Virus record (IMG/VR): IMGVR_UViG_3300021197_000610
Span: 1-56,729 of that record
Reading direction: 5' to 3' (one strand)
DNA: 56,729 bases
Origin: a virus
Taxonomy: Duplodnaviria > Caudoviricetes
The notes under the pieces were generated by a model. It searched no databases and was not told where the DNA came from. It worked only from the letters and a program-made list of their open reading frames with translations. A program made the translations under genes and the position numbers. Below, in pieces: positions 11,076 through 56,729 of this stretch. Numbering within the stretch: the first letter of the stretch is position 1; each line of letters opens with the position of its first letter.

Positions 11076-11237
11076 TCATTGTAGTTTCTCCTTTCTGACT
11101 TCCTCTACACCTACTGCATGATACTGACCTGTCTCAAACATATCTAAGATAATTCTTTTGTCTTTTGCCCTTATGTAAAAACTTATATGACTATTGTCAT
11201 CTCTGTTCTTTTTTATTTTAACTAGGTATCTCTTCAT
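11076..11237 (-). CDS. Hypothetical protein
   Basis: ORF track (start refined to MKRYLV); ATGA coupling. Confidence 0.5.
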   Translation of the reverse strand: MKRYLVKIKKNRDDNSHISFYIRAKDKRIILDMFETGQYHAVGVEEVRKEKLQ

Positions 11238-11407
11238 TGCTGTACCTCTACTTCCAGACAAGCCACTGTCTCTGACTTGTGCGTTACCATCTTAGCTGCT
11301 TTACTTAATTCAATCTGGCACTCTTCTATCGTGGCATAATTGCCCAACTGATAATGCTCTACTGTTTGTGTACTAAACAGCTGCATCCATACTAATACGT
11401 ACATCAT
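11234..11407 (-). CDS. Small hypothetical protein (57 aa)
   Basis: Translated by hand (MMYVLVWMQL...EECQ...ACLEVEVQQ); AAGGAG RBS. Confidence 0.55.
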   Translation of the reverse strand: MMYVLVWMQLFSTQTVEHYQLGNYATIEECQIELSKAAKMVTHKSETVACLEVEVQQ

Positions 11408-11541
11408 TCTTCTGTCTCCTTTCCTTTATGTTTTTTCTTTCTAGGCACTACACCTTTCTTTCTGTCAGGTATAGCTTGTTGTTTATACTTAGGTTGCCGA
11501 AGGTCTTTTGCCATCGGATTTTTAATGTATCGGACCTTCAT
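11404..11541 (-). CDS. Small basic ArfA-like phage protein (45 aa)
   Basis: Translated by hand: MKVRYIKNPMAKDLRQPKYKQQAIPDRKKGVVPRKKKHKGKETEE. Confidence 0.5.
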   Translation of the reverse strand: MKVRYIKNPMAKDLRQPKYKQQAIPDRKKGVVPRKKKHKGKETEE

Positions 11542-11713
11542 ACCAATCATCCCAATCTTTTTCAAGCTCGTTGTGAAACCTGATGTCAGCCGCCATTAAG
11601 AAAAATAAGGCTGCAAGTTCCATCGAATACTCATCTTCTATCTTACCTTCTGCAAATAGCTTACCATATTTCTCAAAAGTTTCTATAGGTACTTTTCTAT
11701 CTTTTTTGCTCAT
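11522..11713 (-). CDS. Hypothetical protein
   Basis: ORF track; ATGA overlap with the integrase stop. Confidence 0.55.
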   Translation of the reverse strand: MSKKDRKVPIETFEKYGKLFAEGKIEDEYSMELAALFFLMAADIRFHNELEKDWDDWYEGPIH

Positions 11714-12618
11714 TCCCTTTGTCTCCTCTCCAATGCAGACTTTGCAGTCTTCAAACTAAATTTGTTGTACGGATTCAAACTCTGTACATTCTTGTGACCA
11801 GACACCGATTGTATTGCCAGATGGTCAACTCCACTCTCTATCATTTGTACGATTGCGGTCTTACGCAGATCACCTACTCTTAGATCATCAGGAAGGCAAG
11901 CAATAGCTTTTACCTTCGACAGTAGGTCTGTCATCTGATAAACCGTTAGTGGTCTGTAGGCATTGTCTTGTGGGCGGTGATGAGGAACTACATAAGGTTG
12001 AAAGTCCCAATCCTCTTTCTGCTGACGTAGCATGGCTATCAGGTTGTCTGGAATAGGTAGCTCAACTGTAGCACCACGTTTAGTTTGAGTAATTGTAACT
12101 ACACCCGAATCAAAATCAAGTTGATCCCAAGTCAGGTTGCGTATGTCTATGGGACGTTGTCCCCACTCATAACACATCATTACAACCAGTCCGATGTTAC
12201 GCCACTCAAATTTTAGGAATGCTGTGTCGAGAAATGATAGTACTTGGTCATGTGTCCATACTACAGAACGTGGCTCACTGGTACGTTTATGTACCCTAGC
12301 CATAGGGTTAGATGTAATTTTTTCCATGTTAATCATGTAGTTCATAACTACAGAAAAAATACGAGCATTGTGATTTGCATTAGCTGTCGATGTCTCTAGC
12401 TCCCAAGTATCATATACTTCGGTACACAAGGGTACATTTAGATTTTTGATACTGATGTTGCCTAGTATCCTACCGCCTATAGGCAGACGACAGAAGGCGT
12501 GTAAGGATGTCTCATAGCCTTTTTGAGTAGAGGCTGCGAGTGATGCAAATTGTCTAGTATGTAAGTACTCATCTACTGCTGTTCTAAATTTCATATCTTT
12601 CCTATCCAATGGGAACAA
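11710..12618 (-). CDS. int: Tyrosine recombinase/integrase
   Basis: GQRPIDI (R), TKRG (K), GDLRKT (HxxR variant), SGH, and the catalytic Tyr in LNPY. Confidence 0.88.
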   Translation of the reverse strand: MFPLDRKDMKFRTAVDEYLHTRQFASLAASTQKGYETSLHAFCRLPIGGRILGNISIKNLNVPLCTEVYDTWELETSTANANHNARIFSVVMNYMINMEKITSNPMARVHKRTSEPRSVVWTHDQVLSFLDTAFLKFEWRNIGLVVMMCYEWGQRPIDIRNLTWDQLDFDSGVVTITQTKRGATVELPIPDNLIAMLRQQKEDWDFQPYVVPHHRPQDNAYRPLTVYQMTDLLSKVKAIACLPDDLRVGDLRKTAIVQMIESGVDHLAIQSVSGHKNVQSLNPYNKFSLKTAKSALERRQRE

Positions 12619-12677
12619 TCGTCATGTGGATCATCTACTGGTTCCATAGGCTCCTCCTACCTCAAGGAACCTATAGT

Positions 12678-12740
12678 TATACTTAAAGTATTTATTATTA
12701 CTATAGTAAATAATAGATACCTAAAGTTACTTTAAGTATA
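12678..12740. repeat. AT-rich site with ACTTAAAGT/ACTTTAAGT repeats, copy A
   Basis: ACTTAAAGT 12681-12689, CCTAAAGT 12720-12727, ACTTTAAGT 12729-12737. Confidence 0.6.
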
Positions 12741-12770
12741 TAAAATAGATGCTTTGAGCATTATGTCAAG

Positions 12771-15350: not shown

Positions 15351-15845
15351 TCATTTCCTCCATTCTGGTTCTCTACCCCAACGCCATGTCAAGGTAATGT
15401 TACGTTCTTTCCAACGATCATTCATATACATTTGATATGCTTTGTGCACATCACTAACATCTGAATAATCAACTCCACGTTCTAAATTTCTGGCACAATT
15501 AGCAAATGGTGTCAACTCCTCATTTGGAAAATTGCCTACATCACTATACTCATCTAAGTAAGGTATGAGATTACCTGACTTGTGTTTGTTGCCACCTTTC
15601 TGTAAATACAGATGAGACATATGAGACAGTAACCATTTGAAATTGCTACGAGATTTTCTTGCCCACTTGCTACATGGATGATTGATGTAAGCAAGTTTGT
15701 AGACAGGCAAGGTAGTGTCAGGATCTAGCCAACGCACTGCGGTAGACAACATCTGTGCAGACTCAAGAATCATCTTGTTCTTACGGATGTCATCTAGCCA
15801 CCATGCTGACTGCATCGGACACCGAGACAGTGCAAATATATTCAT
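15351..15845 (-). CDS. Pyrimidine-dimer DNA glycosylase (DenV-like family) protein
   Basis: MNIF.L...P...A......KMILESAQMLSTA...NHPCSKW.R....N..WL. Confidence 0.7.
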   Translation of the reverse strand: MNIFALSRCPMQSAWWLDDIRKNKMILESAQMLSTAVRWLDPDTTLPVYKLAYINHPCSKWARKSRSNFKWLLSHMSHLYLQKGGNKHKSGNLIPYLDEYSDVGNFPNEELTPFANCARNLERGVDYSDVSDVHKAYQMYMNDRWKERNITLTWRWGREPEWRK

Positions 15846-16877: not shown

Positions 16878-17035
16878 GTCTTACAGCCTTTCTACATTAC
16901 TTCATGAGGGTGCATCCATCCAAAGGGAGATCATTTGTGTTGAAAAAAAATTACGGATACACCCACAAAAAGTAATGCTGAACATTGGAAAACACCCAAC
17001 ACACTAGCATTGGGTGCTTATCCGATGGTCAACCA

Positions 17036-17530
17036 CTAGGCAACTACAGCCTTGAGTTTCTTGACCATATCAGACGGCACACTGTCTCCATCCTTCAACC
17101 CATCTTGACGTCTTTTCTCAGCTCTAGCAATAAGAGCATGGATCATATCGTCAAGGTTCAGGGGCTTGTACTCAGGCTCAGGCTTGAACTCCCAGTAGGG
17201 AGTGTCGATAGCAGCTCGAGCATCACTCTTGCTGATCTTGGTACGGTTCTTGTGATATACAAAACAGCTTTCGTCTGTATCCCACACAAAGGTCAAGAAG
17301 CTCTCGACCCACGCCTTGACCGCATTAGAACGCCAACCACTAGGCAAGCTATCAAGCAGAGCATTAGTTTGACGAACAGCAACCGTAACATCATTAGTCT
17401 CATTCCAAAGCACAGCAATAGAAGCAAGCACACGATGCGTGTCGGCTTGCAGCTTAGAGCCACGAGAAGCAATAGACGCAATCATTTTGTCGATTGCAAC
17501 GTCAGTTTTGATAAGTGTAATTTTAGCCAT
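17036..17530 (-). CDS. First early gene, hypothetical phage protein
   Basis: Strong AGGAGGT RBS; IASIASRG..L....H and PYWEFKPE motifs resemble early proteins of other podoviruses. Confidence 0.75.
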   Translation of the reverse strand: MAKITLIKTDVAIDKMIASIASRGSKLQADTHRVLASIAVLWNETNDVTVAVRQTNALLDSLPSGWRSNAVKAWVESFLTFVWDTDESCFVYHKNRTKISKSDARAAIDTPYWEFKPEPEYKPLNLDDMIHALIARAEKRRQDGLKDGDSVPSDMVKKLKAVVA

Positions 17531-18054
17531 GTAAACCTCCTACGATCTAGCTATACAACCTACCCACCATGAGTAAGCTGTACAAGCTAGACCGAGAGCC
17601 ACACAAAAACCACAGCATGTGCAGCTCTAGGGTTCACTTGTGACGGCATGGGTGCATCTCAGCATATATCCCCAAGTACTAGCAAAGGTTGTCCGACCAT
17701 TCTAGCAATACCGCCAAATATAAAACTCAAAGCACCGACTACGAAAGAATTGACAAGTATCGCATAGCACAATTGAATTGCACACTAGCATTGATACAAA
17801 CGCATCTAACAAGTCGGAACTCGCAAACCCTACCGTCACCCCACCGCACGCAAGAATTAGTCGCACGTCTGGACTTACAGCACTATCTTATTGGACGGCA
17901 TCACACCGCCACCGATAGGGCATTGAGCCACGCCAAAGGCGTGTATGTAAACGCAAGGTTGATCCTACAGCACTCCCTAGACCCATCACGGGCTAGATGC
18001 GAGTAGTAGACCCTGCTAGTCGATAAAGGCCGACTGGCCGTTCCGAATAATTAG

Positions 18055-18082
18055 AGAATACAGCAATTGACCGAGATGTAAA
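18055..18082 (-). promoter_or_regulatory. Candidate leftward early sigma70 promoter
   Basis: Minus strand TTTACA-N16-TATTCT. Confidence 0.4.
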
Positions 18083-18088
18083 TAGGTG

Positions 18089-18101
18089 TAAGCTATTGAT
18101 T
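18089..18101 (-). promoter_or_regulatory. IHF consensus site
   Basis: AATCAATAGCTTA matches WATCAANNNNTTR exactly. Confidence 0.55.
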
Positions 18102-18154
18102 TTAAACGATAATACATATTTTATTTATTGAATATGTTATTGGTTTCTCTGTTT

Positions 18155-18198
18155 GTTCTCATTGTGTTCTATGTTAGTGATTCGTTCCTGATTCGTTC
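18155..18198. promoter_or_regulatory. Two alphaproteobacterial LexA (SOS) boxes
   Basis: GTTC-TCATTGT-GTTC at 18155-18169 and GTTC-CTGATTC-GTTC at 18184-18198. Confidence 0.7.
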
Positions 18199-18218
18199 TC
18201 ATATGCCCAAAGTTTCTA

Positions 18219-18289
18219 CGTTATGTTATAACATTACATACTTGCAGAGTCCGAATGTGTGACATTTTGATATTTGTTATGTTATAACA
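18219..18289. promoter_or_regulatory. Two Zur-like boxes
   Basis: CGTTATGTTATAACA at 18219-18233 and TGTTATGTTATAACA at 18275-18289, versus the consensus TGTTATA-N-TATAACA. Confidence 0.55.
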
Positions 18290-18354
18290 TAGCATTTGCC
18301 ACACACCACAATCACACATTGTATAGAAAAGCCTTTATATTCAAACATTTATAT

Positions 18355-18409
18355 ATTCAGATATGTGAATATGTTTTCTGATAGTTGTGACACATTCAAA
18401 TATTCGAAT
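18355..18409. promoter_or_regulatory. Two ATTC-N8-GAAT palindromes (ArsR/SqrR-like operators)
   Basis: ATTC-AGATATGT-GAAT at 18355-18370 and ATTC-AAATATTC-GAAT at 18394-18409. Confidence 0.45.
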
Positions 18410-18502
18410 ATGTAGGGGCATGGGACAGGGTAGGGGTCATGGTATGCGTTTATAGCCAATGACAGAGATGTGATTTTTTAGTTTTGGACAAAATGCCGCA
18501 CC

Positions 18503-18545
18503 TAAACGTGATCACAGGCTGTTATCTACTTTAAATGTGATCACA
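18503..18545. repeat. Paired TAAAYGTGATCACA operator-like repeats
   Basis: Copies at 18503-18516 and 18532-18545 with a palindromic GTGATCAC core. Confidence 0.55.
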
Positions 18546-18587
18546 AATATAAAAATCAATAATAATAAAAATATTTTTGTTTACCCC

Positions 18588-18617
18588 TTGACCTCGGGGC
18601 ATAGAGTATTATATAAT
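18588..18617 (+). promoter_or_regulatory. Candidate rightward sigma70 promoter
   Basis: TTGACC-N18-TATAAT preceded by an AT-rich UP-like tract. Confidence 0.5.
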
Positions 18618-18618
18618 A

Positions 18619-18725
18619 CATAAAGTAATATTACTTTAAGTACCTCTATGTAACTTAAAGTAACCTTAAGTTTCTATTATCTCTTATATATTAATAGTTA
18701 TTATATACTTTAAGGTACTTAAAGT
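18619..18725. repeat. AT-rich site with ACTTAAAGT/ACTTTAAGT repeats, copy B (origin-like)
   Basis: Repeats at 18633, 18653, 18663, 18707 and 18717 flank an almost pure AT spacer. Confidence 0.6.
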
Positions 18726-18773
18726 AGTACATTATAGACGTAGAAAGTTTTTTCTGTCGTCCCATTTAATGTA

Positions 18774-18803
18774 TTGACTTTATTTCCCCTTCAAGGTATA
18801 ACT
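18774..18803 (+). promoter_or_regulatory. Promoter of the lysis/late arm
   Basis: TTGACT-N17-TATAACT. Confidence 0.6.
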
Positions 18804-18805
18804 AG

Positions 18806-19063
18806 ATGAGAAAAAGACACACGTATTCTTCGGATAATGTTGTAGAAGAGTTCTACAAGGCTCTTGCAGACAAAAACGAAGGTAAGCTTCGCAGGGTACA
18901 CATACCAAGATCTGATGTATTCTATGTACGAGAGGCAATTTTTCAAAACACAGGTACTAAATACTCCCTAGACAGGGTAGAACGAGCTATGTATCTAGAA
19001 GGTATGCTCAATATTAGAGATGTTTTTGAGCCTGAACGTAAAAGAGAATGGGAAACTGACTGA
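18806..19063 (+). CDS. Hypothetical phage protein
   Basis: ORF track; first gene of the right arm. Confidence 0.65.
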   Translation: MRKRHTYSSDNVVEEFYKALADKNEGKLRRVHIPRSDVFYVREAIFQNTGTKYSLDRVERAMYLEGMLNIRDVFEPERKREWETD

Positions 19064-19392
19064 TGACAGTGGATTTTGACATAGATGGTGATGGACAGAT
19101 CACAGTAGAAGAGATAGCTATGAAAGAACGTATGCTTGAAGTAGAGCTACGAGAAGAAAAAGCAGAATCCCAAAAGAAAATGGCTTGGGTAGCCATGATT
19201 ATGATGATTGTCTTTACTGTTGTGTTATTTACCCCACTAATAACAGATACAAGAGTATCAGCTCTTGCAGATTTGCTAGGATTGTTCTATATTGCACAGA
19301 CTGGTGTGGTAGCAGCTTATATGGGAGCTACAGCATACATGGCAGGTAAGCCAATGGGTAATAAAATAGCAATGAAAAAGGATACAAGATGA
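19063..19392 (+). CDS. Membrane protein with EF-hand-like N-terminus, candidate holin
   Basis: DIDGDGQITVEE loop, two TM segments, directly upstream of the endolysin. Confidence 0.55.
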   Translation: MTVDFDIDGDGQITVEEIAMKERMLEVELREEKAESQKKMAWVAMIMMIVFTVVLFTPLITDTRVSALADLLGLFYIAQTGVVAAYMGATAYMAGKPMGNKIAMKKDTR

Positions 19393-19856
19393 GTTTTAGA
19401 CTAAGTCAGAGATCACTGGACAGATTAGAGGGTGTACATCCTGCAATGACTGGGGTGGTAGAAAGAGCCATACAAATTACTGGTGTCGATTTTGGAGTTA
19501 CGCAAGGTATACGTACCTTAGACGAACAGAAAGCTAATGTAGCTGCAGGAAGATCTCAAACTATGCGGTCAAAACACTTACTACAAGAGGATGGCTTTAG
19601 CCATGCAGTTGATGTAGTAGCCTATGTAGGTTCAAATGTATCTTGGGAACTTAATCTGTACGATGACATCTGTGATGCCTTTAAACAAGCTGCAGAAGAG
19701 ACTGAGGCATCCGTTAAGTGGGGAGCTGCTTGGTCTGAGGGAGATATTAGAACTTATCCTGGCACAGCTGAGGATGCTATGATGGCATACGTAGACTTAC
19801 GTAGGTCACAGGGACGTAGACCTTTTATTGATGCTCCGCATTTTGAACTGATGTAA
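19389..19856 (+). CDS. Endolysin, peptidase M15 family
   Basis: LSQRSLDRLEGVHP, GIRT..EQ, SKHL...HAVD, WG, DAPHFEL. Confidence 0.88.
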   Translation: MSFRLSQRSLDRLEGVHPAMTGVVERAIQITGVDFGVTQGIRTLDEQKANVAAGRSQTMRSKHLLQEDGFSHAVDVVAYVGSNVSWELNLYDDICDAFKQAAEETEASVKWGAAWSEGDIRTYPGTAEDAMMAYVDLRRSQGRRPFIDAPHFELM

Positions 19857-44773: not shown

Positions 44774-45700
44774 GTGAAAAAACTATTTTTTATTGATGGG
44801 GGCGCAGGTCGTGCTGTAGCATCTATACCTGCTTTCCTAAAGTATGCAAAGAAACATGATGACTTTGCTATACTAGTACATGGATGGGATACTTTATATT
44901 GGGGTATCCCTGAACTACAAGACAAAGTATTTAACCCTGAACAAAAAGGTATCTTTGACCACGTAATAAAAGATGCTGAAGAGCTTGTATCTCCTGAACC
45001 ATATCGAGTGCCAGGATACTTTAAACAAGAATTATCTTTAGCTGAAGCCTTTGATGTTCTAATTAATGATACGAATGATCATTCTGATCTAGGTCTACCT
45101 GTTCTTAAAACTTCTAAGATGGAAGAGATTAATGCAGCAGGTATGTTCTTGGATGCAAAGAATCAGCAGAAAAAACAAAAGAACATTGTGTTGCAACCCT
45201 TTGGGCGTTCTGCACAAAAACATCCTACTGGTACTATTATTGATGAATCATCTCGTTCTCTTGATCCTCAGTCGTATCTAAAACTAGTTAAGAAGTTAAG
45301 TGTAAAGTACAACCTAGTTCTTATGGCTGAACCAGATTTTCATATGGCAGAGGATACCTACACTGTAAAACCACAGGCAGACCTACGAATGTGGACTGCA
45401 TTTATTGGTTCAGCAGACTACTTTATTGGTGTAGACTCAGTTGGTCAACACATGGCTAGAGCATTAGGAACTCCTGGAACAGTAATTGTTGGTTCTACAT
45501 TTGCTATCAACACAACTTATCCAGACTACTTTAACATTGTAGAAAAAAAGGATGCTAAGAAATACTCACCTATTCGTATCTCAGGTCTTGAGAGTCACCT
45601 AGCTGACAGAGCTAACGATACTCTGATGGATTTTAGTGACGAAGAAATAAATGCAATGTATACTAACATTGTCAAAGATATTGAAAAGAAGGTGAAGTAA
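44774..45700 (+). CDS. GT9-like (heptosyltransferase family) glycosyltransferase
   Basis: C-terminal LR.W...I..ADYFIGVDSVGQHMARALGTP, IVLQPFG; N-terminal DGGAGRAVASIP. Confidence 0.8.
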   Translation: MKKLFFIDGGAGRAVASIPAFLKYAKKHDDFAILVHGWDTLYWGIPELQDKVFNPEQKGIFDHVIKDAEELVSPEPYRVPGYFKQELSLAEAFDVLINDTNDHSDLGLPVLKTSKMEEINAAGMFLDAKNQQKKQKNIVLQPFGRSAQKHPTGTIIDESSRSLDPQSYLKLVKKLSVKYNLVLMAEPDFHMAEDTYTVKPQADLRMWTAFIGSADYFIGVDSVGQHMARALGTPGTVIVGSTFAINTTYPDYFNIVEKKDAKKYSPIRISGLESHLADRANDTLMDFSDEEINAMYTNIVKDIEKKVK

Positions 45701-47412
45701 TGAATATTTTAGCAATCAATCCAGGACATAATGGTTCTGCTGCTCTAGTAGTAGATGGTGAATTAAAATTTTATATAGAGGAAGAAAGACTTTCTCGTAG
45801 TAAATATGATGGAAATCCTTTTGCAGGAATGATGGAAGCACTAAAGTATGGTGTAGACATCCTAGTTCTTGGTGGTACTTCAGAACAATTTCCACAGTTA
45901 CCTTGGACAGGAGAAGATCCTTACTCTGGTTTTTTAAGAAAATTTAATCCTAACTTACAAATAATAAGTGTTGGTGGTGCTCACCATCTAGGTCATGCAG
46001 CAAATGCTTTCTACAACTCAGGGTTTAAACAGGCTGCTGCAGTTATTGTAGATGGATCTGGTTCTCATAGACAGATAGAAATTAATGAAGAGTTTAAGAA
46101 CCCAGGTTTTGAAACAGAATCTATTTTTAACTGTGACTATGAAGAGGGAATAAAACCTGTATTTACTTCTTATGGTGGAAACTACGATACCCAACGTATA
46201 GTAAATGAAGAGTTAGAGATGGATAGTGCTATAACACTAGTTAAAGCATACGAAGCTGTTTCACACTATCTTGGGTTTGGTTACATTGAAGCAGGTAAGA
46301 CAATGGGTCTTGCACCATATGGTAAAAGAAACGAGTTTATTCCTAGTTTGTTTTATAATGGCAGAGGTAACAAGAACGTATTTATTCCTAACTACCCTGC
46401 AGGTGCTTACGTAGATCACTTACGCCACCCTTTACTAGAACTAAAAGAAGACCCTAAAGCTTGGCATAGTGACTACACAAAGGTAACAGATGCAGCAAAA
46501 GACTTAGCTTGGGCTGTGCAGGATGAGACACAAACTCTTGTAGGAGACTTAATCGAAAAGGCTGTAGATAAAACAGGACACAAAAACATTGTTATATCAG
46601 GTGGTTATGGTCTTAACTGTGTAGCCAATTACTACTACAAGGAAAGGTTTCCTGATCTTAATATCTTTGTTGACCCTATCTCTCACGATGGTGGTACAGC
46701 AATAGGGTTAGCCAAACTAATTCACTACGATAAGAACAAAGAGGATAAGACTATACGTCCTATGACTACTCTTTATCTTGGCCCTGAACGTAAAGAAGAC
46801 TATGACCTTGGTGATATAGAAACTAAAGATGTTAAAGCTGCTGATGTAGCAAAGCTAATAGCAGACAAAAACATTGTAGCTCTATTCCAAGGACGTTCTG
46901 AAGCAGGACCACGAGCACTAGGTAATCGTTCTATACTATACGATCCCACAGATACTAATGGTAAAGACTTTGTAAACGCAGTCAAAGGAAGAGAGTGGTT
47001 CAGACCTTTTGCAGGTTCAATGCTACAGGAAAACTTTGAAGAGTGGTTTGAAACTCGTGGGTTAGAAGAGTCACCATACATGATGTATGCTATGGACTTT
47101 AAGACTGAGAAGCATGGTGAAGTTCCTGCGATTACACACGTAGATGGTACATGTCGTATTCAGACTGTAACCAAGAAACAGAACCCTAGCTATTATTCCC
47201 TGATAAAAGAGTTTGATAAAATCACCGGTGTTCCTATTTTGTTCAACACAAGTTTTAATCTAGCAGGTCAGCCTTTAGTTGAAACTTTACAGGATGCTAT
47301 AGATACTGTAAAGAACTCAGACATAAATTACTTATATCTGCCAGACATAGGTAAGCTAGTACACTATCCTTATAATGACAGCATTGTTGAGGATATGGGA
47401 GAAGCTGCTTAA
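45700..47412 (+). CDS. O-carbamoyltransferase (CmcH/NodU/TobZ family)
   Basis: GHNGSAAL, EEERLSR, HHLGHA, GKTMGLAPYG, GPRALGNRSIL, REWFRPFA, NTSFN. Confidence 0.93.
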   Translation: MNILAINPGHNGSAALVVDGELKFYIEEERLSRSKYDGNPFAGMMEALKYGVDILVLGGTSEQFPQLPWTGEDPYSGFLRKFNPNLQIISVGGAHHLGHAANAFYNSGFKQAAAVIVDGSGSHRQIEINEEFKNPGFETESIFNCDYEEGIKPVFTSYGGNYDTQRIVNEELEMDSAITLVKAYEAVSHYLGFGYIEAGKTMGLAPYGKRNEFIPSLFYNGRGNKNVFIPNYPAGAYVDHLRHPLLELKEDPKAWHSDYTKVTDAAKDLAWAVQDETQTLVGDLIEKAVDKTGHKNIVISGGYGLNCVANYYYKERFPDLNIFVDPISHDGGTAIGLAKLIHYDKNKEDKTIRPMTTLYLGPERKEDYDLGDIETKDVKAADVAKLIADKNIVALFQGRSEAGPRALGNRSILYDPTDTNGKDFVNAVKGREWFRPFAGSMLQENFEEWFETRGLEESPYMMYAMDFKTEKHGEVPAITHVDGTCRIQTVTKKQNPSYYSLIKEFDKITGVPILFNTSFNLAGQPLVETLQDAIDTVKNSDINYLYLPDIGKLVHYPYNDSIVEDMGEAA

Positions 47413-48053
47413 GGTAGCTTTTTAGCAAACTGAAGAAGATCATCAAACACTTTGGTCTTCTTTCTAAGTTTCTCTTTTGAGAATTTCTTGAGGTCTTCTT
47501 CAGTTTCTAATCCATGACCAGTACGTACTAAAATAGGAGTAGCACCGATACGTTCTGCAGCTTTAATATCTGTTAGCTTGTCGCCCACATAAAAACCATT
47601 TTGTTTAAACCTATACTTACTTTGAAAAATTTCTTTTTCTGCTCTGTGAAACATACCAAGATTAGGTTTAGCAAAGCAATCACATTTCAGAGAGGTTTCA
47701 GAATAAAACAAACCATCAATGGAGTAGATACCTGCATTGCCAAACACTTCCATCATACGTTGATGAATGGCTTCAACTTGCTCGTGTGTCTGCTCTTTTT
47801 TTATAATACCACCTTGGTTAGTTAAAATTACTAGTTTATAACCTTTAGTTCTAATTAGTCGTATGGCTTCAAGAGAACCAGAAATAGGTTCCCAATCATT
47901 AGGATCAGTAAGATAACCTTTATCTATATTGATAACACCATCTCTATCTAAACCAACTATAGGTTTAGGAAACACTTTAGGCCAGTCATTAGGTATATTT
48001 TGTTGTTGAATTTGTTGAGGGTCTTGTTCTATAATATGTTTAAATCTAGACAT
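47409..48053 (-). CDS. gmhB: D,D-heptose 1,7-bisphosphate phosphatase (HAD-IIIA)
   Basis: LDRDGVIN, TNQGGI, KPNLGM, VGD...D..AA, LVRTGHG. Confidence 0.85.
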   Translation of the reverse strand: MSRFKHIIEQDPQQIQQQNIPNDWPKVFPKPIVGLDRDGVINIDKGYLTDPNDWEPISGSLEAIRLIRTKGYKLVILTNQGGIIKKEQTHEQVEAIHQRMMEVFGNAGIYSIDGLFYSETSLKCDCFAKPNLGMFHRAEKEIFQSKYRFKQNGFYVGDKLTDIKAAERIGATPILVRTGHGLETEEDLKKFSKEKLRKKTKVFDDLLQFAKKLP

Positions 48054-48082
48054 AGCAACTCCTTTTGACAGGATAATAACAC

Positions 48083-48493
48083 ATGAAAAAAGTATTTGTC
48101 AATGGAGCCTTTGATGTAATACACTCAGGACACCTTGATCTAATTGATTTTGCTAGCATGTTAGGGGGTAGATTACTCGTAGCCCTTGACACAGATGAAA
48201 AAATAAGGTATAACAAGGGGGCAGATAGACCTTTAAACAATCTTAAAACTCGGAAGCATCTGATGTCAATGTTAAAGCCTGTAGATAGTGTTGTGTCATT
48301 TAACTCTAATAAAGAGTTAAGTAATATTATTAAAAGGTATAAGCCTGACGTTATGGTAAAAGGTTCCGATTGGAGGGGGAAGAAGATTGTTGGTGAGGAA
48401 TACTGTAAGGAAATAGTATTCTTTGAGAGGACCAACAATGAATCAACAACAAATACCCTCCAAGATTTTGTTGATAGGAGACGGATGTTATGA
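48083..48493 (+). CDS. hldC: Heptose-1-phosphate nucleotidyltransferase (RfaE domain II)
   Basis: NGAFDVIHSGH, KGADRP, VKGSDW, STT. Confidence 0.85.
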   Translation: MKKVFVNGAFDVIHSGHLDLIDFASMLGGRLLVALDTDEKIRYNKGADRPLNNLKTRKHLMSMLKPVDSVVSFNSNKELSNIIKRYKPDVMVKGSDWRGKKIVGEEYCKEIVFFERTNNESTTNTLQDFVDRRRML

Positions 48494-49193
48494 CGAGTAC
48501 TGTTACGGTACAGTCAAAAGATTAAACCCAGAAGCACCTGTACCAGTACTAGATTGGGACACCACTGTTCGTAAATTAGGGATGGCAGGTAATGTACTTC
48601 AAAATTTACAAGCATTAGGTTTAAATTGTCATTATGACATTTTATATAAAGAAACAAAGAAAAGATATATTGATAACAAGACTGGTCAACAAATTGTAAG
48701 GGTTGACATACCTCTTATAGAGGGAGACCATGAAGAACATAGACTACATAAGTTTAATGATTATGATGCTATTGTTATATCTGATTACAATAAAGGTTAC
48801 GTTAGCACCTTTACCATAGAAAGTATCTTAGAAAGTTTTACTGGCCCTGTATTTATTGATACTAAAAAACAAGATTTAAAGTTGTTTGGAAAAGCTTTTG
48901 TAAAAATAAATCAATACGAATACGAGAACAGAATATCTGATGCAGATAACATGATTGTTACATTTGGATCGGAAAAGGTAGTCTACAAAGACAAGCTATA
49001 CTTACCCCCCAAAGTAGATGCACATGATGTTTGTGGTGCAGGGGATACATTCTTAGCAGCTTTAGTATATAGTTGGTTACAAACGCCTGATATACCAAAA
49101 GCCATTAAGTTTGCTATGAAGGCTGCTGCCATAACTGTCAAACATGTCGGTGTGTATGCACCTCGTTTAGAGGAGATACATGATGCGGCTTGA
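48438..49193 (+). CDS. hldA: Heptose-7-phosphate kinase (RfaE domain I, PfkB family)
   Basis: LLIGD..DEY.YG...RLNPEAPVPV, ISDYNKG, DVCGAGDTF. Confidence 0.88.
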   Translation: MNQQQIPSKILLIGDGCYDEYCYGTVKRLNPEAPVPVLDWDTTVRKLGMAGNVLQNLQALGLNCHYDILYKETKKRYIDNKTGQQIVRVDIPLIEGDHEEHRLHKFNDYDAIVISDYNKGYVSTFTIESILESFTGPVFIDTKKQDLKLFGKAFVKINQYEYENRISDADNMIVTFGSEKVVYKDKLYLPPKVDAHDVCGAGDTFLAALVYSWLQTPDIPKAIKFAMKAAAITVKHVGVYAPRLEEIHDAA

Positions 49194-49539
49194 GGGGCAT
49201 ATTAAAAAAGGTTGGGGTTCAGAACTAATATGGGCAACCAACGACAAGTACTGTGGTAAGTTTTTACATTTTAACGAGGGTGCTAAATTTTCTATGCACT
49301 TTCATAGGGAAAAAGATGAGACTTGGTACATACTTAAAGGTAGATTTAAAGTTATCTACATAGACACAAAGGATGCAAGTACTCATGAAAAGATTCTCAC
49401 AGATGGTGATACATGGCGTAACGAACCTTTAGCCCCTCATCAAATTATCTGTGAAAAAGAAGGGACAGTAATAGAAGTTTCTACCCCTGACTCTGTAGAG
49501 GATAACTACCGTGTTGGTGGGGGAGACAGCCAGAAATGA
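49180..49539 (+). CDS. Cupin (sugar-phosphate isomerase-like)
   Basis: KGWGSE, SMHFHREKDETWY, PHQ, EVSTPD..EDNYR. Confidence 0.8.
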   Translation: MMRLEGHIKKGWGSELIWATNDKYCGKFLHFNEGAKFSMHFHREKDETWYILKGRFKVIYIDTKDASTHEKILTDGDTWRNEPLAPHQIICEKEGTVIEVSTPDSVEDNYRVGGGDSQK

Positions 49540-50309
49540 AAATACTGGTTACTGGTCACAAAGGTTTCATTGGTCAGAATATGGTCAATGCTTTGAAAGA
49601 TAAACATGAAATTTCTACTTACGAGTTTGGTAATCAATACCCAATAATAGACGGACTTGATTGGGTAGTACACTTAGGAGCAGTAAGCTCTACTACAGAG
49701 CAAGACATACGTAAGATAACAGTACAGAACATTGAGTCCTCTATTTATTTGTACGAAGACTGTATAGAAAAAGGTGTAAATTTTCAGTTTGCTAGTAGTG
49801 CTTCTGTATATGGTTTAGAGTCTGGATTTAAAGAAAGCTGTCCTCTTAATCCTCAAAACCACTATGCTAGAAGCAAAGCTTTATTTGAAAAGTATGTCGA
49901 GTATCGTAAAGCTCCTATAATAACTCAAATATTTAGATACTTTAATGTGTATGGTGATCATGAAGATCACAAAAAAGATCAAGCCAGTCCCTACACAAAG
50001 TTTAAAACACAGGCAAAAGAAACAGGTAGCATAAAACTATTTAAAAACTCCGAGTACTACTACAGAGATTTTATACACGTAGATAAAATAGTAGAATACC
50101 ATCAGAAATTTTTTGACGTAAAAGAGTCTGGTATTTGGAACATGGGAACAAGTAGAGAAAAAAGTTTTTACGAAGTTGCTATGGATATATGTAAAGAAAC
50201 AAAGGCAACTATTGAGTGGGTAGACATGCCAAAAAAATTAAAGAGCAGCTATCAAGATTTTACTAGGGCAAACACAGTTAAGCTCTGGCAAACTCTATCG
50301 TTGAGATAA
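49536..50309 (+). CDS. hldD: ADP-L-glycero-D-manno-heptose 6-epimerase-like SDR
   Basis: TGHKGFIG, HLGAVSSTTE, ASSASVYG, YARSK, RYFNVYGDHEDHK..QAS, RDFIHV. Confidence 0.85.
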   Translation: MKILVTGHKGFIGQNMVNALKDKHEISTYEFGNQYPIIDGLDWVVHLGAVSSTTEQDIRKITVQNIESSIYLYEDCIEKGVNFQFASSASVYGLESGFKESCPLNPQNHYARSKALFEKYVEYRKAPIITQIFRYFNVYGDHEDHKKDQASPYTKFKTQAKETGSIKLFKNSEYYYRDFIHVDKIVEYHQKFFDVKESGIWNMGTSREKSFYEVAMDICKETKATIEWVDMPKKLKSSYQDFTRANTVKLWQTLSLR

Positions 50310-55802: not shown

Positions 55803-56729
55803 ATGGATGACAATCTTGTAAGCATGGGTCTAAAGGCAGCAGAAAAAACTGACAGTGGTTCTGATAATTTAGTACAAATGGGTTTAAATTCTAAAAGTTC
55901 TATGATGCCAAAGCCTCAAGAAAACTTTGAGGCTTATTCTATTATGAGTGAGCTAGAAAACATAGAACAAGACTCTTTAACAGAGAGAGCTATTTTAGAA
56001 AATAAAAATCTTGTACAGGGCATTCGTAATATTATGAAAGCTCGTTACAGTCCAGAGACTCGTAACAAGTTTAGCTTTGATGAAAAATACGACAGGACTA
56101 TGTCGGATTCAGACGTTATACAAGAATGGCAAAACTGGATGAGGTCACTTGCAGGTGGGCAGACAGTTACGACAGGTAATGACGTTGCGTGGTTTGCTAT
56201 GGCTGATGATGATCAAAGAGCTTTGATGGGAGCTTCTTTTGAGATTATGGACAAGATGCCAGGTATTTTTAATGATAACGTTACTTGGGGTGAAACTCTT
56301 GATGGTGTTCGAGACTATGCATGGGCAGGTATTTGGGACCCAAGTACCGTATTAGGTTTAGGTGTGGGTAGGTTGTTTGCCAAGAAAGTTTCAAAAGACC
56401 TAGTAGGAAAAAAAGTACGTGACACAGCTAGACAGGCATTTGAAGCTGCTATTAAAAGAGGCATGACAAAAGCTGAAGCAAGAGAAGTTAAACGTAAGGT
56501 TATTAAACAGGGCTTTCGTAAAGCTGCAATTAAACAAAACTTACCACCAGTAATTGCAGGTATGACTACTGACGCAGCCATTGCTGTAGGCACAGATCAA
56601 CTATATCAAGGACTTCGTATTGGTAGTGGTGTACAAGATCACAGAAGCTTACCTCAGTCTGCAGGTGCTGCGTTAGGTGTGATAGTAATGCCAGGACTAT
56701 TTGCAGGAACAAAGATGCTTGCAAAAGGA
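55803..56729 (+). CDS. N-terminal part of a large internal virion protein (3'-truncated)
   Basis: Reading frame from ATG 55803 (MDDNLVSM...) runs to the window end (...TKMLAKG). Confidence 0.7.
   Translation, partial: MDDNLVSMGLKAAEKTDSGSDNLVQMGLNSKSSMMPKPQENFEAYSIMSELENIEQDSLTERAILENKNLVQGIRNIMKARYSPETRNKFSFDEKYDRTMSDSDVIQEWQNWMRSLAGGQTVTTGNDVAWFAMADDDQRALMGASFEIMDKMPGIFNDNVTWGETLDGVRDYAWAGIWDPSTVLGLGVGRLFAKKVSKDLVGKKVRDTARQAFEAAIKRGMTKAEAREVKRKVIKQGFRKAAIKQNLPPVIAGMTTDAAIAVGTDQLYQGLRIGSGVQDHRSLPQSAGAALGVIVMPGLFAGTKMLAKG

Follow-up and report, generated by a model that had tools for sequence, protein, structure and literature searches.

Paired boxes matching host-class LexA and Zur operators in the probable divergent control region of an HMO-2011/CRP-type marine podovirus

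How does an integrase-bearing phage with no recognisable repressor control its early genes, and what is a dense array of paired boxes, several of them resembling bacterial operators, doing in the non-coding gap between its two gene blocks? The question is raised by IMG/VR record IMGVR_UViG_3300021197_000610 (56,729 bp, classed 'linear', estimated completeness 74% by CheckV), which was analysed over its whole length and is called the window here. We class it as an HMO-2011/CRP-type marine podovirus with an integrase, whose nearest named relatives by nucleotide similarity are the Roseobacter RCA phages CRP-9, CRP-1 and CRP-13. The array (18089-18545, 33% G+C) lies in the gap 17531-18805, and a first reading, made from the sequence alone, had taken it for a landing pad for host proteins at the presumed genome end. 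The array is real, conserved and binding-site-like, and the explanation that fits it best, to which we give about even credence, is that it forms the upstream half of a central bidirectional control region coupling early and lysogeny transcription to stress repressors of the host.

All motifs listed by the sequence-only reading sit where it placed them, and the paired ones exceed what base composition yields. Shuffling 18089-18545 itself 5000 times with dinucleotides preserved never gave two or more copies of GTTC-N7-GTTC, of ATGTTATAACAT or of ATTC-N8-GAAT (0/5000 each), gave two or more copies of GTGATCAC once, and gave all four pairs jointly in 0/5000. Over the whole window GTTC-N7-GTTC occurs three times, twice in the array, and ATTC-N8-GAAT, ATGTTATAACAT (with at most one mismatch) and GTGATCAC occur twice each, always in the array. 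The excess predicted over composition-matched shuffles is confined to these four pairs. The IHF consensus WATCAANNNNTTR is matched once in the array and 10 times in the window, and carries no weight alone because at least one match was also present in 399/5000 local shuffles; the sequence AAGCTATTGATTTTAAA around it is kept in the relatives L014 and L007. The TGTGACA half-sites (18258 and 18386) are not enriched either, with 7 in the window against 12.4 expected, so that two elements formerly counted as meaningful parts of the array are at chance level. Readings of parts of the boxes as GANTC/GcrA-type or CtrA-type sites were dropped on inspection by eye, being valid in some variants only.

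The pairs recur in related phages. Eighty IMG/VR loci were fetched by way of the endolysin; a 14-mer scan of viral contigs returned mostly chance matches (true context in 4/80 listed loci), and a longer core pattern, used instead, matched 15 contigs. When 19 related control regions (21.6 kb) were set against the remainder of those sequences (165 kb), GTTC-N7-GTTC was found 16 times inside versus 3 outside on the same strand and 0 versus 3 on the opposite strand, while the counts were 18 versus 0 for ATTC-N8-GAAT, 18 versus 0 for TGTGATCACA and 32 versus 2 for TACTTWAAGTA. Among the 19 regions, 13 contain GTTC-N7-GTTC, 17 TACTTWAAGTA and 8 ATTC-N8-GAAT. The half-sites are constant and the spacers free, the different spacers numbering at least 9 in GTTC-N7-GTTC and 15 in ATTC-N8-GAAT; a check proposed earlier, namely whether relatives keep the motifs while the spacers diverge, is thus positive. 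The gap as a whole is hypervariable at the nucleotide level: only the closest relatives align, and the adjoining leftward genes are not shared.

The GTTC-N7-GTTC boxes correspond to the published LexA consensus of alphaproteobacteria (PMC3091678). Operators were checked at class level: lexA was located in 98/121 alphaproteobacterial genomes, 20 upstream regions were fetched and 18 of them hold a GTTC-N7-GTTC box, typically TGTTCTAGTTTGGTTCT, which upholds the LexA assignment of the first reading. (The genome tallies for lexA, Zur, SqrR and TGTGATCACA include G038, an unpublished genome that supports none of the claims made here.) Along the direction of the gene, 18/19 host boxes read GAAC-N7-GAAC. 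The phage boxes read GAAC-N7-GAAC leftward in 16/16 cases, which is the host orientation for a leftward unit, and their flanking T's are as in the host boxes. As motifs, they are indistinguishable from host-class LexA operators. In 12 of the 13 regions listed, a -10-like hexamer (for example TATAAC/TATAAA, TATCAT or, in the window, TAAATA/TAAAAT) stands 21-31 nt leftward of the first LexA-like box, which would put the box at or adjoining the -35 position of a putative leftward promoter.

The ATGTTATAACAT boxes were compared in the same way with the sites of the zinc-responsive repressor Zur. A scan of the 121 alphaproteobacterial genomes gave 26 sites in 23 genomes versus 11 for the reversed control. 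Six sites were examined: one, in genome L114, lies between znuA and a Fur-family gene, reads TTGTTATGTTATAACATAACAA and is identical to the phage box; two precede cobW-family genes, one stands beside an ABC ATPase gene and two have uninformative neighbours. In Paracoccus denitrificans, a member of the Rhodobacterales, Zur sites tested in electrophoretic mobility shift assays (EMSA) read GTAATGTAATAACAT and GTTACGATATAACAT (PMC5387054); the phage 15-mer GTTATGTTATAACAT shares 13/15 positions with each of these two, and every one of its positions is found in at least one of them. With znuA and cobW neighbours in alphaproteobacteria and an EMSA-tested Rhodobacterales motif, the earlier assignment to Zur holds, and these boxes too cannot be told, base for base, from host-class operators. 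They also touch promoter-like elements: Zur-like box 2 lies in the spacer and the -10 of a rightward site (9/12 consensus match), and in relatives a Zur-like box supplies the TATAAC -10 of a leftward promoter-like site (9/12). Together with the hexamers near the LexA-like boxes, this speaks against the view that most boxes lie too far from candidate promoters for simple repression, although the sites concerned match the promoter consensus weakly. At least one Zur-like box (with at most one mismatch) is present in 11/16 close relatives and none was found in 14 more distant control regions; a strain variant, 18225 G>A, alters Zur-like box 1.

The boxes are parts of a fixed scaffold, whose order and distances relative to a conserved core are maintained across relatives (Table 1). 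From the left, one or two GTTC-N7-GTTC boxes, always on one strand, are followed by palindrome cassettes, a G-rich tract and then CAATGACAGAGA, TGTGATCACA boxes, two strong rightward promoter-like sites with TACTTWAAGTA and finally a gene for an 85-amino-acid protein. The cassettes are exchangeable: directly upstream of the core, 8 of 16 close relatives have a Zur-like box, 7 an ATTC-N8-GAAT box and 1 neither, and more distant subgroups carry TGTGATCACA (three copies) and/or GTTTAANNTTAAAC boxes as replacement. CRP-1, in which the gene order is different, still has the G-rich core and a pair of TGTGATCACA boxes. Further strain variants, and fragmentation, are seen in the control region in metagenome contigs of three studies; joints that replace 18141-18351 have short sides (24 nt) and may derive from relatives. 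The tract at 18415-18440 is a four-tract G-run on the plus strand amid the AT-rich gap, with its G-richness kept in 17 relatives, where its neighbours are an alternating GTATATAT stretch and CAATGACAGAGA. In CRP-9 and longer-gap relatives, a 40-codon open reading frame (L002, CRP-9, 885-1010) has its start 8 nt beyond a TATAAC -10 and is trailed by a hairpin and a T-run; this segment is absent from the window's clade.

Table 1. Elements of the divergent control region and related sites, in window coordinates.
Feature	Position	Strand	Remarks
Control region, non-coding, 1275 bp, between divergent gene blocks	17531-18805		Open reading frame map; cumulative GC-skew minimum at ~18 kb; homologous CRP-9 gap 1255 bp
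IHF-consensus match, AATCAATAGCTTA	18089-18101	-	Chance-level
-10-like hexamers TAAATA/TAAAAT at 27-31 nt to the left of LexA-like box 1 (putative second leftward promoter)	18118-18127	-	Same geometry in 12/13 regions listed
LexA-like box 1, GTTCTCATTGTGTTC	18155-18169	+	Exact GTTC-N7-GTTC
LexA-like box 2, GTTCCTGATTCGTTC, 29 bp after box 1	18184-18198	+	Exact GTTC-N7-GTTC; CRP-9 and L055 have the identical box at the same 29-bp spacing
Zur-like box 1, GTTATGTTATAACAT	18220-18234		Exact 15-mer
Zur-like box 2, GTTATGTTATAACAT	18276-18290		Within promoter-like site TTGATA-17-TAGCAT (18267-18295, + strand)
ATTC-N8-GAAT box 1, extended TATATTC-N8-GAATATG	18355-18370		Pattern match and relatives
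ATTC-N8-GAAT box 2, with palindrome ATATTCGAATAT (18400-18411), in the slot directly upstream of the G-rich core	18394-18409		Pattern match and relatives
Conserved core: G-rich tract GGGG-CAT-GGG-ACA-GGG-TA-GGGG, then AATGACAGAGATGTGATTTTTTAG (18458-18481)	18415-18481	+	Aligned in 17 relatives; exact core pattern in 15 IMG/VR contigs
TAAACGTGATCACA box (TGTGATCACA core, 1 mismatch)	18503-18516		One of two TAAAYGTGATCACA repeats
TAAATGTGATCACA box (TGTGATCACA core without mismatch); the start inferred for the 18588 promoter lies ~83 nt downstream	18532-18545		Other TAAAYGTGATCACA repeat
Leftward promoter-like site TTTACA-16-TATTCT	18055-18082	-	TTTACA-17-TATAAC at the same place in L014, though the -10 region has diverged
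Rightward promoter-like site TTGACC-18-TATAAT (11/12)	18588-18617	+	10/10 close relatives scanned
TACTTWAAGTA boxes: exact 18632-18642, 18716-18726; 1 mismatch 18617-18627, 18652-18662	18617-18726		32 copies in 17/19 control regions versus 2 outside
Rightward promoter-like site TTGACT-17-TATAAC, with 3 nt between it and the ATG at 18806	18774-18802	+	10/10 close relatives scanned
Conserved 85-amino-acid first rightward gene	18806-19063	+	Homologs in 23 loci, 65-76% identity
Leader of leftward operon, 520 nt, G+C-richer, strongly structured as RNA	17531-18050	-	Fold z = -4.19
First leftward gene, 164 amino acids, phrog_1448 (no assigned function)	17036-17530	-	Not common to relatives
Two exact TACTTWAAGTA boxes (12680-12690, 12728-12738) in the 152-bp gap (12619-12770) upstream of the integrase gene	12680-12738		int at 11710-12618, minus strand

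The remaining boxes are of two kinds. The arms of ATTC-N8-GAAT extend to CATATTC/GAATATG across relatives; the pattern is the published 'deduced' SqrR site, and the CATATTC arm flanks one R. capsulatus operator used in binding assays. In the 121 genomes, TATTC-N8-GAATA showed no clear excess over its reversed control (per-genome columns, unsummed), and ATATTC-N8-GAATAT was found in 54/201 genomes, with at least 11 of 16 inspected sites inside long open reading frames. What stands of the earlier SqrR/ArsR assignment is the match to the deduced consensus; the boxes fit a minimal pattern, and SqrR binding to them is unproven. For TGTGATCACA, 7 sites in 61 genomes, 5 of them coding, gave no host regulon, and the two intergenic sites were set aside as they adjoin unrelated genes (malic enzyme/RecF-like; sulfotransferase/amidohydrolase). 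Both TGTGATCACA and TACTTWAAGTA, with no host counterpart seen, look phage-specific, so that the array would not be purely a pad for host proteins. TACTTWAAGTA also stands upstream of int in the relatives G001 (two boxes), G002 (two) and G140 (one), and its presence both at the rightward promoters and at the int promoter suggests that one regulator acting at both is shared; a phage-coded regulator probably uses TGTGATCACA and TACTTWAAGTA as its operators. A TTGACA hexamer also lies in the 152-bp gap before int.

A candidate for the TACTTWAAGTA regulator, by position alone, is the 85-amino-acid protein. It belongs to no Pfam or PHROG family, and its predicted model is a low-confidence four-helix fold (mean predicted local distance difference test score 66) to which nothing in the PDB corresponds at E <= 0.001. 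The TATAAC -10 of the second rightward promoter-like site ends 3 nt before its ATG (18797-18808 in the window) in every one of the 10 close relatives scanned, which suggests a leaderless or near-leaderless message.

From the motifs, their enrichment, conservation, order and orientation and the promoter-like geometry around them, we infer both the binders and the regulatory outcome of the preferred control-region reading. At the left end of the scaffold, which HMO-2011/CRP-9-type phages have in common, one or two LexA-type boxes would abut the -35 of a leftward early promoter; in the middle, interchangeable paired palindromic operators, in this clade of the Zur and ATTC-N8-GAAT types, precede the G-rich core; at the right end, TGTGATCACA boxes are followed by two strong predicted rightward promoters flanked by TACTTWAAGTA. 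Host LexA, zinc-bound Zur and, at ATTC-N8-GAAT, an ArsR/SqrR-like or phage-coded protein would bind the array and hold down leftward transcription of the early, replication and integrase arm, which would be released by DNA damage, zinc starvation or a third signal. In an integrase phage with no recognisable repressor, part of the choice between lysis and lysogeny, or of that on early expression, would then fall to host stress repressors. Scans of open reading frames of the window (40 against Pfam, 20 against PHROGs) revealed no Fur-, LexA- or ArsR-like protein, and integration at a tRNA-Met gene has been reported for the related phage CRP-3. Among the four functions offered by the sequence-only reading, the best fit is a lysis/latency decision into which DNA-damage, zinc and redox status are integrated, given the integrase and the lack of a recognisable repressor, although its redox part, dependent on SqrR, is unproven; for ratcheting, end protection and titration nothing was found that speaks in their favour. 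A bolder form of the same reading, in which a temperate podovirus from one of the most abundant phage groups of the ocean, without its own repressor, would leave its early/lysogeny switch to host LexA, Zur and a sensor like SqrR, the operators being plug-in cassettes swapped between strains at fixed slots of the scaffold so that each strain would be 'listening' to a different mix of host signals, we regard as rather unlikely.

Several observations weigh against coupling to host repressors. The -35 hexamers of the promoter-like sites adjoining the boxes are poor, and promoter-like sites in the control region (4, versus 5.4 in shuffles) are not above chance. As ATGTTATAACAT contains TGTTATAAC, an extended -10-like sequence, on both strands, selection on it could have been for a promoter instead of a Zur site, and the SqrR reading depends on 8 specified bases for which genome scans gave no regulon. 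The related sequences share descent and several are near-duplicates, so that motif counts among them do not represent independent events. Box turnover is fast: L014, the closest relative (81% mean column identity), has a broken half-site in LexA-like box 1; Zur-like box 1 and one TGTGATCACA box are missing from it, and in the very place of the window's second ATTC-N8-GAAT box it carries a Zur-like box. Of 16 close relatives, 5 lack a Zur-like box and 9 show no LexA-like box at 450 nt or less from the core. Binding is predicted from sequence, and the operator checks come from genomes at class level and one Rhodobacterales paper. Lastly, LexA-like boxes are also present in CRP-9 and G005, which have no integrase, and L020 has an integrase and no perfect box; being found with and without integrase, they cannot be specific to lysogeny. 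An integrase is present in the window, G001, G002 and G140 and was not found in G005, G003, G141 or CRP-9, and a tie of the LexA box to integrase presence was discarded, there being no correlation among relatives. If LexA binds, its role would exceed prophage induction. Zur-like boxes and ATTC-N8-GAAT boxes occur within the integrase clade only, a distribution confounded with phylogeny.

The main rival to control by host repressors is that all boxes are operators of phage-coded regulators, swapped as immunity-like cassettes, the likeness to host sites being a coincidence or a by-product of promoter content. The swaps in a fixed slot between close relatives (8/16 and 7/16) are what such cassettes would show; phage-specific operators do exist, as TACTTWAAGTA appears to form a phage-internal regulon at the rightward and int promoters and TGTGATCACA has no host regulon; the Zur-like box holds TGTTATAAC on both strands, and several early genes have no assigned function. 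Yet the genes adjoining the array differ between phages with the same boxes, and a search for co-variation of boxes with adjoining phage genes found no proximal leftward genes common to such phages. No Fur, LexA or ArsR fold was seen among the phage proteins scanned, and the sole 'DNA binding' candidate specific to the group resembles a repair enzyme of the DenV type. The Zur match spans 15-18 bp, and that to LexA sites takes in the flanking T's and the orientation. We consider this rival possible and, on balance, doubtful. Less probable still is that the region is mainly a replication origin, for example transcription- or R-loop-primed at the G-rich core, with the boxes as accessory or initiator sites. 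An AT-rich array (33% G+C) beside a conserved tract that is G-rich on the strand not used as template in rightward transcription, a T7-type primase-helicase module in the phage, a core kept even in CRP-1 with its different gene order and a cumulative GC-skew minimum at ~18 kb would all suit it, but the skew switch coincides with the switch of gene strand and is not independent evidence for an origin. None of the 33 DnaA-box-like matches in the window falls in the region, its repeats are mostly palindromes of several kinds in pairs and not same-sense iterons, and no initiator gene was identified; an origin of the DnaA-box/iteron type was rejected. Origin function of the G-rich core could, however, coexist with a control function.

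Two further explanations invoke host proteins or the genome end without local regulation. In one, replicating phage DNA would act as a decoy, titrating LexA and Zur and thereby de-repressing host SOS and zinc-uptake genes to the benefit of the phage, which encodes an M28-type peptidase; the boxes are indeed exact or consensus-grade host operators, several per genome, and would be multiplied by replication. Fixed order, orientation (16/16) and distance to -10-like elements point instead to local regulation in cis and are needed by no decoy, there are only 2+2 sites per genome, and many relatives lack one or both kinds, which makes titration very unlikely. The other is the landing pad of the sequence-only reading, which would ratchet in the first-injected end of the genome or protect it. 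It might draw on the GenBank records of CRP-9 and CRP-1, which are linearised beside the homologous region, and on the many fragmentary metagenome contigs that break inside the control region. Those records, however, begin exactly at the first base of gene 1, an annotation convention, and the contigs break at varied positions, as expected from strain-level cassette variation. The region presumed to be a genome end is internal in the record and in five relatives that are 96-100% complete; neither the window nor these relatives have end repeats, and their contig ends fall at differing places. A metagenome contig of 2879 nt bridges 17921-19800, across the array, and the 11 raw reads placed show no pile-up of molecule ends there. 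An end-related role is hardly credible on this evidence.

The proposed control by host repressors has partial precedents. Immunity and operator regions of lambdoid phages are mosaic, each operator set travelling with its own repressor gene. The present region resembles them in its fixed scaffold, its interchangeable operator cassettes between divergent promoters and the rapid exchange among close relatives; it differs in that no co-travelling regulator gene was found and in that two cassette types equal host operators. Host-regulator sites are known in other phages, such as Pho boxes and NtcA sites in cyanophages and CtrA sites in alphaproteobacterial phages; here too phage promoters would be wired to host global regulators reporting cell state, but those cases involve one regulator at particular genes, whereas the array is multi-regulator and located at the central control region. 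Host LexA takes part in phage repression in CTXphi and, with tum, in coliphage 186. In the Bacillus phage GIL01, host LexA is reported to serve directly as the phage repressor (PMC4551915, PMC6182141). The likeness of the window to these three phages lies in host-type SOS boxes in a phage promoter region and no classical CI-type repressor; the window's box, unlike theirs, is the alphaproteobacterial direct repeat, is also present in integrase-less relatives and stands beside operators of other host regulators, while no gp7-like co-factor was identified in the window and the LexA role is a prediction from motifs. As for Zur, the divergent zur/znuA promoter of P. denitrificans holds two Zur motifs (PMC5387054). 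Two 15-bp Zur palindromes in one divergent intergenic region are common to both; the phage region, by contrast, controls no zinc gene, its boxes are spaced by 56 bp and their zinc-dependent binding is predicted.

The genome around the region is organised in two arms. Minus-strand genes from 17530 down to 1295 make up the early/replication arm, with the integrase (11710-12618), ThyX, a primase-helicase of the T7 type and MazG; the plus-strand arm runs from 18806 through the conserved 85-amino-acid gene and a 109-amino-acid gene to the endolysin, HNH, large terminase, portal, major capsid and tail genes. The M28-type peptidase named above belongs to the Pfam family Peptidase_M28. The leftward leader, which lies between the predicted leftward promoter and the first leftward gene, could be a structured leader or a non-coding RNA: 0/100 shuffles of 17531-18050 fold as stably, and its G+C is 48% (bin 17001-18000) versus 33% in the array. 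It has no nucleotide match among the 80 related loci and no Rfam match; an Rfam scan of 17300-19000 gave two sub-threshold chance matches only. A protein of 164 amino acids (15351-15845, minus strand), labelled 'DNA binding protein' in PHROGs (phrog_624), is found only in the integrase-bearing clade. As its homologs carry PF03013, it was dropped as a group-specific regulator; it is probably a UV-repair enzyme of the DenV type (T4 endonuclease V pyrimidine-dimer glycosylase family).

The gap was also considered as the phage attachment site (attP) of the integrase and rejected, since the int start (12618) is ~5 kb away from it (17531) and the scaffold is also present in the integrase-less CRP-9 and G005. 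Directly downstream of int (11076-11713, minus strand) lie small open reading frames of 61, 57 and 53 amino acids and one of 63 amino acids that overlaps the int stop, all 71-100% conserved in integrase-bearing relatives. An endolysin-based search of genome contigs for prophages or hosts gave three short contigs of metagenome-assembled genomes, none in a prophage context, and in the protein atlas neither a 536-amino-acid protein nor the 85-amino-acid protein has named relatives. The structural arm includes a sugar-modification island (45700-50309) with a Nol-like carbamoyltransferase, a PfkB-type kinase, a cupin, an NAD-dependent epimerase, a HAD/PNK3P-type phosphatase and a 130-amino-acid gene on the opposite strand. 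Plus-strand open reading frames are cut at either end of the record (1-1281 and 55803-56729), and its completeness is put at 74% at 56.7 kb versus 96-100% for relatives of 54-57 kb; the record may be short of a piece, or the estimate off.

Phages of the HMO-2011 type are described as dominant and broadly distributed marine viruses (PMC9038755), and their isolates infect SAR116 and RCA roseobacters (PMC8528129). Literature searches for LexA and Zur in HMO-2011-type phages, for LexA in roseophages and for Zur boxes in bacteriophages or prophages returned nothing relevant in print (supplements aside), and the published accounts of these phages that were examined make no mention of promoters, LexA or repressors (again, supplements aside), so that the regulation of HMO-2011-type phages appears undescribed. 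Against this background, a conserved scaffold with exact host LexA- and Zur-type operators offers testable handles on when early genes are switched on or lysogeny is left, with UV damage and trace-metal limitation as candidate signals. Bench tests are feasible with the culturable CRP-9, which carries two LexA-type boxes and whose host strain is known. As for the swappable cassettes, they would offer a compact case of modular regulation in phages.

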